Part shown: piece by piece, positions 39,458 to 41,311 of the stretch
Layout of the letters: each line of letters begins with the position of its first letter
How positions within the stretch are numbered: position 1 is the first letter of the stretch
Virus record (IMG/VR): IMGVR_UViG_3300006931_000029
Coordinates: 93,124 to 157,123 of that record
Direction: 5' to 3' (one strand)
DNA length: 64,000 nucleotides
Source of the DNA: a virus
The notes under the pieces: model-generated
Databases searched by the model: none
What the model was told of the DNA's origin: nothing
The model's input: the letters and a program-made list of their open reading frames with translations, nothing else
Position numbers and translations under genes: made by a program

Positions 39458-39533
39458 GCTTCGATAGCTCAACTGGTAGAGCAGGGTTCTCTAAAAACCT
39501 TGGTTGTGGGTTCGATTCCCATTCGAAGCGCCA
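39458..39533 (+). tRNA. amber suppressor tRNA, anticodon CUA (tRNA-Sup)
   Basis: hand-folded cloverleaf: acceptor GCTTCGA/TCGAAGC (7 bp), U8, D-arm GCTC-AACTGGTA-GAGC, anticodon stem GGGTT/AACCT, loop CTCTAAA (U33, anticodon C34-U35-A36, A37), 5-nt variable loop, T-arm GTGGG-TTCGATT-CCCAT, discriminator G, encoded CCA. Confidence 0.75.
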
Positions 39534-39543
39534 TATTTAGTCC

Positions 39544-39801
39544 ATGTCGGACGAACGCAAACTAGTCTCTGTCGATGAGATTGCCAAGCTACTTGCTAAC
39601 GAAAACGGCGACTGGCCGTTTTCCGTCGAAGGTGACCAAGTCGAACTCGTCATCGAGAGCAACGTTTACACTCTTTCGAAAGAAGAATTCAGTCAACTCC
39701 AGGACGCGGCGAAGACGGTCAGTTGGAGAGAGTATTCGAACGGCGAACAGGTGGAGTCTGAAACTCCAGAAGCCCTGGTCGACCGGCTGCTAGACAGTTA
39801 A
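39544..39801 (+). CDS. hypothetical small acidic protein
   Basis: 85-aa ORF starting 10 nt after tRNA. Confidence 0.4.
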   Translation: MSDERKLVSVDEIAKLLANENGDWPFSVEGDQVELVIESNVYTLSKEEFSQLQDAAKTVSWREYSNGEQVESETPEALVDRLLDS

Positions 39802-39828
39802 CAGCAGGCAAATAAGTTTTTTACTTTC

Positions 39829-39838
39829 TCGTTTACAA
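39829..39838 (+). promoter_or_regulatory. TCGTTTACAA variant of promoter-like motif
   Basis: 31 nt upstream of ATG 39870. Confidence 0.35.
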
Positions 39839-39869
39839 TCGCGAGAAAAAGTATCCATGCTTGACTGTC

Positions 39870-40184
39870 ATGGATAAAACCTTCTTCCTATTCGATAGAA
39901 AAGAAATCGAGGGTTGGAAAGTACGCCTAGCGATGCTATGCCAATCCTGCCCTGTTCACGGTCGACACCCAGACTTTTGTCCTCTCCTCGAGCTTTCAAA
40001 ATTAAAGCCTGGGGACCAGATAGACTTCATCAAAACGCTTCCTGTAGACGCTTTGAGGTACGTCTTGGCTAGACACGAAGTATGCATGGAAAACGAAGTT
40101 GGCAAATCGTTAAAAGACGCGTTAGTTAGTTCAAATGCTGACTCGTACGCGTTCTACGAATCGGTTCAAGTCGCTCGAGCATAA
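39870..40184 (+). CDS. hypothetical protein with CxxC...C motif
   Basis: ORF track used TTG at 39861; ATG at 39870 (MDKTFF) more likely; CQSCPVHGRHPDFCP. Confidence 0.4.
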   Translation: MDKTFFLFDRKEIEGWKVRLAMLCQSCPVHGRHPDFCPLLELSKLKPGDQIDFIKTLPVDALRYVLARHEVCMENEVGKSLKDALVSSNADSYAFYESVQVARA

Positions 40185-40360
40185 CCCTTCGAGAGAACAG
40201 AGGATTGCCGAGCTAGACCGTTGCACGTTATGGAATTACTGGCTAATCGAAGATGGCGAGCATTCGGCGGTGGATTCCAACAGAGTCCGAGAAAGGATCA
40301 ACAGACTGTTGGATGCTAGGCTCTACCTTATGAAAAAGGTTTGAGTTGAATTTGTTTCAC

Positions 40361-40374
40361 TTTTTTTGTTTACA
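40361..40374 (+). promoter_or_regulatory. TTTTTTTGTTTACA promoter-like motif
   Basis: 42 nt upstream of ATG 40417. Confidence 0.5.
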
Positions 40375-40413
40375 TTGACGAAGCCTTAGGCATTGTCGAT
40401 GACGTTCTACTTC

Positions 40414-40436
40414 ACCATGAAATCCGAAAACTAGGT
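40414..40436 (+). other. conserved leader CCATGAAATCCGAAAACTAGGTT: ATG-AAA-TCC-GAA-AAC-TAG in frame with ORF 40456..40680
   Basis: 20/22 nt identical to 40925..40947; TAG 40432-40434 in the same frame as ATG 40417 and GTG 40456. Confidence 0.5.
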
Positions 40437-40455
40437 TCCTACCGTCGCCGATGAG

Positions 40456-40680
40456 GTGACGTTCCACTTCAACAAGGCCCATCTCACGGACTCCACGATT
40501 CCGATGTGGGTTCTCAAGTTGAAGGGTCAAACCTACTACGTTTCGCACGTTTCGTCCACGGCTCCATGGAGCACCAAGGAAACGCCTGACAACCCTGCTA
40601 CCAAGGGTTCTCTCAAGTTCAAGAAGGTCGTGGTCTCAATCCACGACGGTGAAGCGGTCATCGAACCGATTGCCGCATGA
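40456..40680 (+). CDS. hypothetical protein (GTG start; possibly extends to ATG 40417 through an in-frame amber codon)
   Basis: 74-aa ORF from track; upstream in-frame ATG-5 codons-TAG-7 codons with no other stop. Confidence 0.45.
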   Translation: MTFHFNKAHLTDSTIPMWVLKLKGQTYYVSHVSSTAPWSTKETPDNPATKGSLKFKKVVVSIHDGEAVIEPIAA

Positions 40681-40689
40681 ACCAATTTT

Positions 40690-40785
40690 GGCAGAGTCGC
40701 CGAACGGTGAGCCGCAAGGCTCTTCAGGCCCGGGTGTCCGGAAGGAGACTCGTCTATGTAGGTTCGAATCCTACCTCTGCCTCCA
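40690..40785 (+). ncRNA. tRNA-like element (96 nt) with canonical acceptor and T-arm and encoded CCA but no canonical anticodon arm
   Basis: acceptor GGCAGAG/CTCTGCC perfect 7 bp, T-arm GTAGG-TTCGAAT-CCTAC, discriminator T, CCA; exhaustive hand search found no 5-bp/7-nt anticodon stem-loop; CCGG-GTGT-CCGG hairpin internal. Confidence 0.35.
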
Positions 40786-40787
40786 AT

Positions 40788-40919
40788 TTCCCTGTAGCTC
40801 AGAAGCTTTGCGAAGTCGCCCGCAGATCACGGGATGACGACGCAAATACCGTCGGCAACGACGAGGTAGAGCGGCCGGTTCTAACCGGAGTGTCGCTGGT
40901 TCAAATCCAGTCAGGGACT
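40788..40919 (+). ncRNA. degenerate tRNA-like element (about 132 nt) with about 62-nt insertion in D-loop
   Basis: TAGCTCAG...GGTAGAGC D-arm identical in stems to tRNA at 39458; anticodon-like hairpin CCGG-TTCTAA-CCGG (6-nt loop containing CTA); T-arm GCTGG-TTCAAAT-CCAGT; acceptor 6/7 bp. Confidence 0.25.
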
Positions 40920-40924
40920 TAATT

Positions 40925-40947
40925 TCCATGAAAGCTGAAAACTAGGT
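40925..40947 (+). other. conserved leader TCCATGAAAGCTGAAAACTAGGTA: ATG-AAA-GCT-GAA-AAC-TAG in frame with PTH2 ORF
   Basis: TAG 40943-40945 in the same frame as ATG 40928 and GTG 40970. Confidence 0.5.
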
Positions 40948-40969
40948 AGATGAAACGCTGAGGCTCTAC

Positions 40970-41311
40970 GTGATCCTCAGAAACGACGCTGGAATGACGC
41001 CCGGCAAGATGGCTAGTCAGGCATCTCATGCGGCGGTTCAAGCGAGCCTGGACTGCCTGGGCAGAGCCCCGGATCGATTCAAGCGGTATCAAGACGGAAC
41101 CTTCGGCACGAAGGTCGTCCTCCACGCTGACGAACTCAAGATGCGCTGGCTCTTTGAGCTGGCGACTGAGCGTCAGATTCCCTGCGCCCTGATTGAAGAC
41201 AGCGGCCATGCCGCGTTTCACGACGGGCGCCCAACCACCACCGCACTCGGCATCGGTCCCATTCAACGGCACGAGATGCGAGAGCTGAAGAAACTGGAGC
41301 TCGTCAAATGA
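40970..41311 (+). CDS. peptidyl-tRNA hydrolase, PTH2 family
   Basis: ILRNDAGMTPGKMASQASHAAV (PTH2 [21 protein letters not shown]), KVVLHADE, ALGIGP; SD-like GAGG 8 nt before GTG 40970; may extend to ATG 40928 via amber codon. Confidence 0.65.
   Translation: MILRNDAGMTPGKMASQASHAAVQASLDCLGRAPDRFKRYQDGTFGTKVVLHADELKMRWLFELATERQIPCALIEDSGHAAFHDGRPTTTALGIGPIQRHEMRELKKLELVK

Follow-up and report, generated by a model that had tools for sequence, protein, structure and literature searches.

Phages recode stop codons with suppressor tRNAs of their own, which read TAG as glutamine or TGA as tryptophan (Borges et al., bioRxiv 10.1101/2021.08.26.457843; Peters et al., PMC9523058). In these phages the suppressor reads an in-frame stop in phage genes within a standard-code host, and it has been proposed that this stop holds back expression, or gates it, until the tRNA has been made. 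We analysed a 64,000-nucleotide (nt) stretch of the IMG/VR record IMGVR_UViG_3300006931_000029 (hereafter the window) and, within it, an island at 39458-41311 that contains a suppressor tRNA with the anticodon CUA, tRNA(CUA), together with two small genes that each carry an in-frame TAG (amber) codon shortly after their predicted start: one for a protein that we call FHFNK after its invariant motif, and one for a PTH2-family peptidyl-tRNA hydrolase. Comparison with relatives makes it likely that the island is a translation module gated, gene by gene, by the phage's own suppressor tRNA. Such a module would share both of the above properties with recoded phages. However, recoded phages carry stops at many positions in dozens of genes, mostly late or lysis genes, under an alternative code, whereas the window phage keeps the standard code, has a single stop at position 3-7 of one or two small genes and at a fixed distance from the protein domain, and holds the gene beside its tRNA.

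An early in-frame stop is also familiar from prfB (release factor 2), where it is autoregulatory, is escaped by +1 frameshifting and senses the gene's own product. The two systems are alike in that an early stop in a translation-factor gene ties protein yield to the decoding of that stop, and they differ in the route of escape, which in the window would be a dedicated tRNA instead of a +1 frameshift. Synthetic suppressor-tRNA feed-forward loops and AND gates combine an N-terminal amber codon with a co-expressed suppressor to obtain tight two-input control (PMC7969014; PMC11669171); these are engineered, whereas the window module would be a natural and widespread counterpart. In the literature searched we found no conserved N-terminal stop in PTH2 or FHFNK, no cassette of tRNA(CUA) and gene, and no tRNA-like RNA of the kind described below. 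The gating cassette and the anticodon-less tRNA-like RNA therefore appear to be undescribed, in agreement with a first-pass annotation of this DNA that had held the linked unit to be new. Neither the presence of PTH2 in jumbo phages nor phage recoding by suppressors is new.

The same annotation had listed an amber-suppressor tRNA, two tRNA-like RNAs, two amber leaders and PTH2 in the island, all of which we recovered in place (Table 1). They lie on the + strand downstream of the terminase gene, in the order tRNA(CUA), three small open reading frames (ORFs), a conserved motif, FHFNK, the tRNA-like RNAs #2 and #3, and PTH2. tRNA(CUA) starts 2 nt past the stop of the gene 39157-39456 and forms a canonical cloverleaf with a 7-nt anticodon loop (CUCUAAA, with U33 and A37), an encoded CCA and the discriminator G73. 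In six relatives the CUA anticodon is fixed while 10 tRNA base pairs change on both sides and the discriminator varies between G, U and A; the alignment is 98.4% paired, and none of 500 shuffles attained the observed score. On these comparative grounds we conclude that tRNA(CUA) is maintained by selection, and the combination of a fixed CUA with a varying discriminator fits an amber codon in a tail where any amino acid is acceptable. The nearest database tRNAs are phage tRNA-Trp and the tRNA(CUA) of Sinorhizobium phage Phosso.

Two other identities were considered for this tRNA and rejected. tRNA-Pyl has a 6-bp anticodon stem, a very short D loop and variable loop, and lacks the G18G19/T-Psi-C signature. 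ARAGORN and GenBank annotators give the tRNA-Pyl label to any CUA tRNA as a naming convention only, and the identity is ruled out here by an anticodon stem of 5 bp, a D loop of normal form that contains GG, a variable loop of 5 nt and GGTTCGATTCC. An initiator-type tRNA that would start translation at UAG is excluded by the paired G1-C72 and by an anticodon stem that lacks three consecutive G-C pairs.

We next consider the two leaders, which share the pattern ATG AAA NNN GAA AAC TAG G as well as a 20-mer, ATGAAANNNGAAAACTAGGT, that occurs twice in the window against 0.02 expected occurrences. The leader ATG at 40417 is in frame with the ORF 40456-40680, and that at 40928 is in frame with the ORF 40970-41311. 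Relatives came from seven further contigs in IMG/VR, JGI, Logan and ENA, with PTH2 proteins 61-87% identical to that of the window. In L001, L004, L005/L006, L012/L013 and L014, the terminase, tRNA(CUA), amber-bearing FHFNK, tRNA-like RNA #2 and amber-bearing PTH2 follow one another in the same order, which bears out the earlier proposal of a linked translation module; L015, a contig of only 1.3 kb, still has the PTH2 leader. An ATG, two to six sense codons and an in-frame TAG are kept for both genes in seven clade members, and while leader length and sequence drift (MKSEN, MKTEN, MKTDN, MNNES, MNIAEP, MNH), the frame is always kept. FHFNK-type amber leaders are found in L001, L004, L005/L006, L012/L013, L014 and the cultured Rhizobium phage RHph_I1_18, and every clade member has a PTH2-type leader, even L015 (MNH-amber), whose PTH2 is 61% identical.

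These leaders could instead be independent upstream ORFs, with termination at UAG followed by re-initiation at GTG40456 and GTG40970, or with a paused ribosome that opens the mRNA there, and with the suppressor unrelated to the expression of either gene. Gene callers do pick these internal starts, the codon at 40970 is ATG in L001 and L004, and GTG40970, which has a GAGG 6 nt before it, falls within the loop of a hairpin that may form in six clade members. We nevertheless regard this explanation as unlikely, because the frame is kept in every case despite insertions and deletions in the leader, and because the codon at 40970 is GTG, ATG, TTG or CTG across relatives, as expected of a hydrophobic sense codon. 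Several relatives have no internal start to use. L015 PTH2 has CTG in place of GTG40970, and the next Met would drop strand 1 and the R-x-D-L motif; L001 FHFNK has no ATG, GTG or TTG from the TAG until after the conserved FHFNK...PTW segment. For PTH2, the Pfam and PHROG profiles also reach 5-12 positions upstream of residue 2.

The hairpin itself (CTGAGG-ctctacGTGat-CCTCAG, 40958-40980, + strand) would enclose the GAGG and GTG40970. Six clade members have it in identical form and L015 in a weakened one; it could be either a regulator of the internal start or a simple reflection of codon conservation.

Cultured phages extend the pattern to known hosts: A. tumefaciens C58 for Atu_ph07, S. meliloti for Phosso and R. 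phaseoli for RHph_I1_18. RHph_I1_18 has an unannotated FHFNK gene in which a Shine-Dalgarno sequence is followed by ATG AGT GAG TTC ATG TAG, with a tRNA(CUA) directly after the gene and within a tRNA array. Phosso encodes a tRNA(CUA), and upstream of its PTH2, in frame, are AGGAG and ATG AAG TAT TAG GTT (MKY-amber), followed by about 50 codons without a start. In Agrobacterium phage Atu_ph07, PTH2 is preceded in frame by ATG ATT GGC GAA CAC TTT TGA (MIGEHF-opal), and the phage has a single suppressor tRNA, with anticodon UCA, for which its authors named many UGA stops in phage and host as potential targets (PMC6102473). The leader stop thus matches the suppressor in each case, TAG with tRNA(CUA) in Phosso and the window clade and TGA with tRNA(UCA) in Atu_ph07, a match that independent upstream ORFs leave unexplained. 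Neither Phosso nor Atu_ph07 PTH2 has a start codon at the position of GTG40970, and their annotated PTH2 starts are internal Met codons at which strand 1 and the R-x-D-L motif are lost.

In both of these phages the second gene after PTH2 encodes a protein of some 175 residues whose C-terminus is the FHFNK domain; a metallophosphatase comes next, and an RnlA RNA ligase or seryl-tRNA synthetase is nearby. Gated genes are missed or shortened in the public records MN988519.1 (~10990-11250; L021 3976-4222), PV764938.1 (176491-176985; L016 3875-4369) and MF403008.1 (L017 3926-4375), and about 30 of the 150 FHFNK cluster representatives listed start at the internal Met of the PMWV motif. Directly after the Phosso tRNA(CUA) is an ORF-free stretch of 1.3 kb (L101 2808-4103; Phosso 446807-448102), for which an Rfam search returned no family.

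To place the FHFNK gene in a wider setting, we scanned IMG/VR and found 382 stretches that encode FHFNK relatives; the best 80 were analysed and yielded 79 loci and 68 detected genes, 56 of them distinct, in which an in-frame TAG was sought up to 12 codons from the FHFNK motif. Such a TAG was present in 67 of the 68 detected genes, 6-10 and usually 9 codons upstream of the motif, and a short ATG leader preceded it in 66 of these 67, with 2 (32/66 genes) or 4 sense codons as the commonest lengths. A purine directly follows the TAG in 65 of the 66 genes (48 distinct N-termini). An AGGAG-type motif stands at -20 to -4 of the leader ATG in 49-51 of the 56 distinct genes, compared to 6-16% at random ATGs, so that here the Shine-Dalgarno sequence precedes the leader ATG and not the internal codon. 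There is no ATG, GTG or TTG between the TAG and the motif in 29 of the 56, and in 23 the only canonical start is within 2 codons of the motif. These results again count against internal initiation, and they lend comparative support to the first-pass proposal that expression of the two window genes depends on amber read-through: the frame is kept, relatives lack an alternative start, and stop and anticodon match.

A same-strand tRNA(CUA) lies within 5 kb of FHFNK in 47 of the 79 loci, often less than 1 kb upstream or directly downstream of the gene, and is the sole tRNA in about 30 loci. In all, 44 distinct tRNA(CUA) sequences adjoin FHFNK genes, and no UCA or UUA suppressor tRNA occurs in these loci. 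Clustering of neighbouring ORFs across the 79 loci gave no universal protein partner of FHFNK apart from the tRNA, and most FHFNK loci have no nearby PTH2. By these comparisons the widely conserved core is tRNA(CUA) with a putatively amber-gated FHFNK gene, found in hundreds of phages, and the link to PTH2 is confined to the window clade and Atu_ph07-like phages. The pairing of tRNA(CUA) with PTH2, for which the first-pass annotation had suggested a synteny search, is not this core. Both the apparent requirement for read-through and the tRNA-gene linkage are shown by comparison of sequences across these relatives.

The brevity of the leaders also recalls the lambda bar minigenes, free-standing ORFs of 2-6 codons that are linked to host Pth and are toxic only when Pth is limiting. 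Both systems have very short ORFs functionally linked to a peptidyl-tRNA hydrolase, although the bar ORFs stand free, whereas each window leader belongs to a protein gene and shares its frame. The leaders might accordingly shed peptidyl-tRNAs that poison or sense translation, with PTH2 as the antidote and read-through secondary. Minigenes do cause peptidyl-tRNA drop-off, and become toxic when Pth is limiting; very short leaders dominate the IMG/VR set (2 sense codons in 32/66), and in the window clade a peptidyl-tRNA hydrolase bears the same leader. We find this improbable, since it leaves unexplained the strict frame with a conserved protein that lacks a start of its own, the adjacent tRNA(CUA) and the TGA/UCA match in Atu_ph07, and since PTH2 is not near most FHFNK loci.

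A phage with a tRNA(CUA), in which TAG is the rarest stop among called ORFs, might use a genome-wide reassigned code (TAG = amino acid, code 15), making the two TAGs ordinary sense codons. We judge this very improbable. Under the standard code, 97% of the window already lies in ORFs of 100 or more codons. Allowing read-through of TAG raises coverage no further than the same treatment of TGA as a control does, both in the window and in the 79 IMG/VR loci, which argues against global recoding. When every TAG was scanned, only two real genes in the 64 kb, FHFNK and PTH2, had one in frame, both at codon 6, and its position is fixed relative to the protein domain. The window phage is not alternatively coded, and its genome uses the standard code. 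A third candidate for an amber-interrupted gene, 31032-32918 (+), was rejected as the antisense shadow of a real minus-strand gene for an SPFH/Band 7 protein (31101-32897, E=2e-28). That gene adjoins 32898-33587 (-), whose product has an NfeD-like C-terminal domain, and the strand opposite it has unusually long shadow ORFs of 147 and 480 codons split by a TAG.

The PTH2 assignment, which the first-pass annotation had made from the translation, was upheld by a homology check: the ORF 40970-41311 matches Pfam PF01981 (E=2.1e-17; 63.8 bits against a gathering cut-off of 23) and the solved Pth2 structures 2zv3 (E=9.8e-12), 1q7s and 1wn2 in the PDB. We assign the product to the PTH2 peptidyl-tRNA hydrolase family on this similarity, and because it does not reach the archaeal Pth2 equivalog cut-offs (NF003314, 64.2 versus 126 bits; TIGR00283, 53.6 versus 82) we place it in a divergent phage subfamily, for which only 8 close clusters were found. 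The catalytic residues of PTH2 we take to be the Lys of a GK motif and the Asp and Thr of a D-A-G-x-T motif. In the alignment to 2zv3 the Lys (GKMASQASHA) and the Asp (EDSGH) are kept, and the Thr position is Ala (DSGHAAF versus DAGHTQL).

Contrary to the first-pass annotation, PTH2 is not unusual in phages. It is a recognised gene of large and jumbo phages (PHROG families 1866 and 11824; Iyer et al. 2021, PMC7824862), and examples include RaK2 (PMC3622015) and gp256 of Atu_ph07 (PMC6102473). The described genes are of the same family and have RNA-repair and tRNA-related genes as neighbours, but none of these papers (PMC7824862, PMC3622015, PMC6102473) reports an upstream in-frame stop. The possibility that a stop leader is a general feature of phage PTH2 was rejected, as PTH2 starts in the ordinary way in Myrna, WXIN and Xoo-sp13; the PTH2 gate would thus be lineage-specific.

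FHFNK belongs to a phage-only family (385 homologues in 158 clusters at 50% identity) for which Pfam and PHROG searches returned no family, and among 185,579 species genomes it gave 6 hits only, all on small contigs of metagenome-assembled genomes. AlphaFold2 predicts a small all-beta protein (predicted local distance difference test score, pLDDT, 92.8), for which structural comparison found no significant relatives. In this model strand 1 (pLDDT ~93) begins about 2 residues past the amber codon, upstream of GTG40456, and the residues past the amber codon align with the 'CKEVV' segment of homologues; the residues right after the amber are thus predicted to belong to the fold.

The FHFNK core PMWVLKLKGQTYYVSHVSSTAPW (40435-40677, residues ~23-51), with the pattern PMWV.K.KGQTYYVNHV....PW, marginally resembles the WW-domain signature (W...G-x-x-Y-Y-x-N-H...W..P). 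Its top matches among PDB sequences are all WW domains, at marginal significance (best E=0.0014; single stretches not significant), hhalign gave 49% probability over 19 columns, and Pfam WW did not match the protein. We therefore treat this marginal resemblance as a lead only. Distant FHFNK members lie inside phage tRNA arrays, with 18 tRNAs in L007 and 23 in L011. On a 384-kb contig (L009/L010) a tRNA(CUA) (3433-3507) lies 1.5 kb upstream of an FHFNK gene (5001-5252) that has an ordinary Met and no amber, so that linkage of tRNA and gene can persist without a gate; a large CCA-adding enzyme gene is near this pair.

Between FHFNK and PTH2 are two tRNA-like RNAs. The first of them, #2, begins 9 nt past the FHFNK stop, in the place taken by tRNA(CUA) in many other phages. 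It has a 7-bp acceptor stem, the discriminator U, an encoded CCA (UCCA) and a canonical T arm; the D region is enlarged by an inserted GCAA-capped hairpin, and the anticodon arm gives way to a 9-bp helix that ends in an invariant GGAA tetraloop. In an alignment of 7 sequences the pairing amounts to 98% of cells, compared to 29-51% in controls in which partners were slid by 1-3 columns; in 9 pairs both partners have changed, and none of 500 shuffles attains the score. A covariance model of #2 scores 103-117 bits in seven clade members only, and at most 43 bits elsewhere, on ordinary tRNAs. ARAGORN proposes a tRNA-Glu(ttc) for the same interval (40690-40785), which we rejected: the proposed anticodon stem breaks in L001, and the GCAA hairpin and the GGAA helix covary.

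tRNA-like RNA #3 was seen in the window's own lineage only, and none of the tools calls it on the intact 40788-40919. A 62-nt D-loop insertion (40803-40864) contains another GCAA-capped hairpin; with this insertion removed, ARAGORN recovers a tRNA-derived cloverleaf with a 6-nt 'anticodon' loop, UUCUAA (4-6 nt overall), with a U-C mismatch at 1-72 and no CCA. In relatives the slot of #3 holds a small ORF (L001), a long hairpin (L004), a DUF6165 gene (L005 and L014) or nothing (L012). The DUF6165 gene, between #2 and PTH2 (L005 2169-2558; L014 3445-3969), has a stop that overlaps the PTH2 leader (ATGAAAACTGA). In three lineages the ATG of the next ORF lies 6-8 nt past the 3' end of a tRNA-like element, and in the window the PTH2 leader ATG is 8 nt past the end of #3.

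By their predicted structures #2 and #3 are unable to decode, because neither has the 7-nt anticodon loop and 5-bp stem of a decoding tRNA, and they are thus not extra suppressors. Non-decoding tRNA-like RNAs include the tRNA-like domain of tmRNA, bacterial YrlA and stable RNAs of the T4 tRNA cluster. Like these, #2 mimics an acceptor and T arm with a CCA end, has no anticodon and lies among tRNA-related genes; unlike them, it has two GNRA-capped arms and is confined to one clade, with no tag reading frame and no Ro-binding stem. An Rfam search of 38500-42500 at E<=1 matched only RF00005 (tRNA), with no tmRNA, YrlA or other tRNA-like family. We infer for #2 descent from a tRNA and a role in transcript processing or punctuation, though it might instead act as a decoy or regulator.

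These elements might also be functionless tRNA pseudogenes in decay, and the TAGs inactivating mutations or assembly errors. #3 does look degenerate, being lineage-specific with a mismatched first pair and no CCA; this element alone may be decaying. As an account of the whole island we find the idea barely credible, since over 60 distinct sequences, drawn from independent metagenomes, share these TAGs, three cultured phages carry such stops, and #2 is still 98% paired although both partners have changed in 9 pairs.

If the island is gated by its tRNA, ribosomes would start at the leader ATGs 40417 and 40928 and reach UAG at codon 6. Without charged tRNA(CUA), release factor 1 would terminate there and yield a pentapeptide only, leaving the gene effectively off; after its transcription and processing, and after charging by a host synthetase, tRNA(CUA) would read UAG, and full FHFNK and full-length PTH2 would be produced. 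The amber codon would then act as a switch and not as a coding position, placed in a non-conserved N-terminal tail so that any inserted amino acid is tolerated, and the output of both genes would be proportional to suppressor activity, like that of an AND gate or feed-forward sensor. FHFNK is phage-only and stands beside tRNA(CUA) or inside phage tRNA arrays, which suggests that it acts on the suppressor/termination system or on tRNAs. PTH2 would recycle peptidyl-tRNAs that arise from perturbed UAG decoding or from tRNA damage, and it is plausible, as the first-pass annotation had proposed, that it relieves peptidyl-tRNA drop-off caused by suppression; the suggestion of ribosome rescue for phage PTH2 by Iyer et al. 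(PMC7824862) fits such a recycling role. The tRNA-like RNAs would most likely serve as RNase P or 3'-end processing signals at which the FHFNK-PTH2 transcript is cut, leaving the next ORF with a 6-8 nt leader.

Several observations weigh against this account. In both window genes a GTG stands in frame shortly ahead of the conserved domain (at 40456 and at 40970), and that of PTH2 has a GAGG upstream at a plausible distance, so that some product independent of the suppressor may arise from GTG40970 and/or GTG40456. The leader ATGs of the clade have no obvious Shine-Dalgarno sequence, and the AlphaFold2 model of the extended PTH2 (pLDDT 68.8, N-terminus below 50) is too poor to judge the N-terminus. 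Some FHFNK members (e.g. P0007, P0008 and P0018) have an ordinary Met start and no amber, so that the gate is not obligatory for the protein, and 32 of the 79 loci have no tRNA(CUA) within 5 kb, though it may lie elsewhere in those genomes. A processing role for the tRNA-like RNAs is suggested only by their position and shape. Even so, re-initiation, minigenes, recoding and pseudogenes fit the data less well than gating by tRNA(CUA).

More tentatively, tRNA(CUA) and amber-gated FHFNK might together form a self-sensing switch, widespread in standard-code phages, by which UAG decoding is reset in the infected cell and to which PTH2 was added in jumbo phages. In this speculative scheme FHFNK would be an effector on release factor 1, the ribosome or the suppressor tRNA, and, through the amber codon in its own gene, it would feed back on itself positively (commitment) or negatively (steady read-through). 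Extension of the gate to PTH2 in jumbo phages would make peptidyl-tRNA recycling scale with suppression, the leader stop would be swapped from TAG to TGA whenever the phage suppressor changed, and the anticodon-less RNA would be a new class of phage RNA that arose from the tRNA usually following FHFNK.

The surroundings of the island identify its source as a large novel phage. The large terminase gene (36814-38883) has cultured relatives that are at most 29% identical, DNA and terminase comparisons found no close cultured relatives of the window phage, and an FHFNK protein 99% identical to that of the window sits on a 224,943-bp contig. In the terminase relatives L002 and L003 (~52% identical) the module is absent from the flanking DNA examined. 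Upstream of FHFNK, TTTTGTTTAC of the conserved motif is invariant in six relatives; a strict sigma-70 promoter scan found zero sites in the island, this motif included, and the motif may be a candidate phage promoter of the FHFNK, tRNA-like and PTH2 transcript. These genes and RNAs probably form one transcript, because the island has no terminator-like site on the + strand.

Downstream of PTH2, the product of 41514-41981, a tentative module member, gave only weak evidence of similarity in single BLASTP comparisons (E=1e-6 for Atu_ph07, 1e-3 for Phosso). The gene is syntenic in L001, L004, L012 and L014, and the domain fusion in the cultured phages hints that its product and FHFNK act together. 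A phosphatase or phosphoesterase adjoins PTH2 in Phosso, Atu_ph07, Xoo-sp13 and the window clade, and is thus a recurrent neighbour. Convergent with PTH2 is a small Cys-rich ORF (41318-41554, - strand) with CCCG...C...C motifs, which shares 71% identity with its L001 counterpart and overlaps, on the other strand, the beginning of the gene at 41514. Elsewhere in the window, a 620-aa AAA ATPase gene (34881-36743, - strand) is divergent from the terminase gene and syntenic in L004, and its product weakly matches, far under the cut-off, the model of the anti-phage ATPase IteA. Two large proteins, 23212-25113 (-) and 46014-48248 (-), contain collagen triple-helix repeats (E=6e-24 and 2e-50) and are probably fibre or tail proteins.

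Table 1. Positions in the window of the island's features and of two downstream genes.
Feature	Coordinates	Strand	Evidence or description
Amber-suppressor tRNA(CUA)	39458-39533	+	ARAGORN; Rfam tRNA 65.8 bits, E=2.8e-13
Conserved upstream motif	40361-40397	+	TTTTTTGTTTACA-N17-ATTGTC
FHFNK leader	40417-40434	+	ATG AAA TCC GAA AAC TAG (MKSEN-amber); amber 40432-40434, followed by G
FHFNK gene, read through amber	40417-40680	+	87 codons; named after invariant motif
tRNA-like RNA #2	40690-40785	+	Rfam tRNA 31.6 bits only; fold; covariation
tRNA-like RNA #3	~40788-40919	+	ARAGORN only with insertion removed; fold
PTH2 leader	40928-40945	+	ATG AAA GCT GAA AAC TAG (MKAEN-amber); amber 40943-40945
PTH2-family gene, read through amber	40928-41311	+	GTG40970 a possible alternative start
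Gene, tentative module member	41514-41981	+	Resembles N-terminal domain fused to FHFNK domain in Atu_ph07 and Phosso
Metallophosphoesterase	42196-42795	-	phrog_547 phosphoesterase, E=4e-55

Gating of this kind would explain a puzzle posed by standard-code phages with one suppressor tRNA (Atu_ph07, Phosso, AP-J-162 and RHph_I1_18): specific target genes for such orphan suppressor tRNAs can now be named, and if the reading is true these tRNAs gain a defined function. One dedicated tRNA with one or two gated genes is a plausible intermediate between standard and reassigned codes, and would be a natural version of the suppressor-tRNA logic gates built in synthetic biology. The comparison also exposes a systematic annotation error, in which gated genes are missed or begun at an internal Met, and draws attention to a protein family that is confined to phages and linked with tRNA biology, and to a new tRNA-like RNA that does not decode. 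With three phage-host pairs in culture, the proposed gating can be tested directly.

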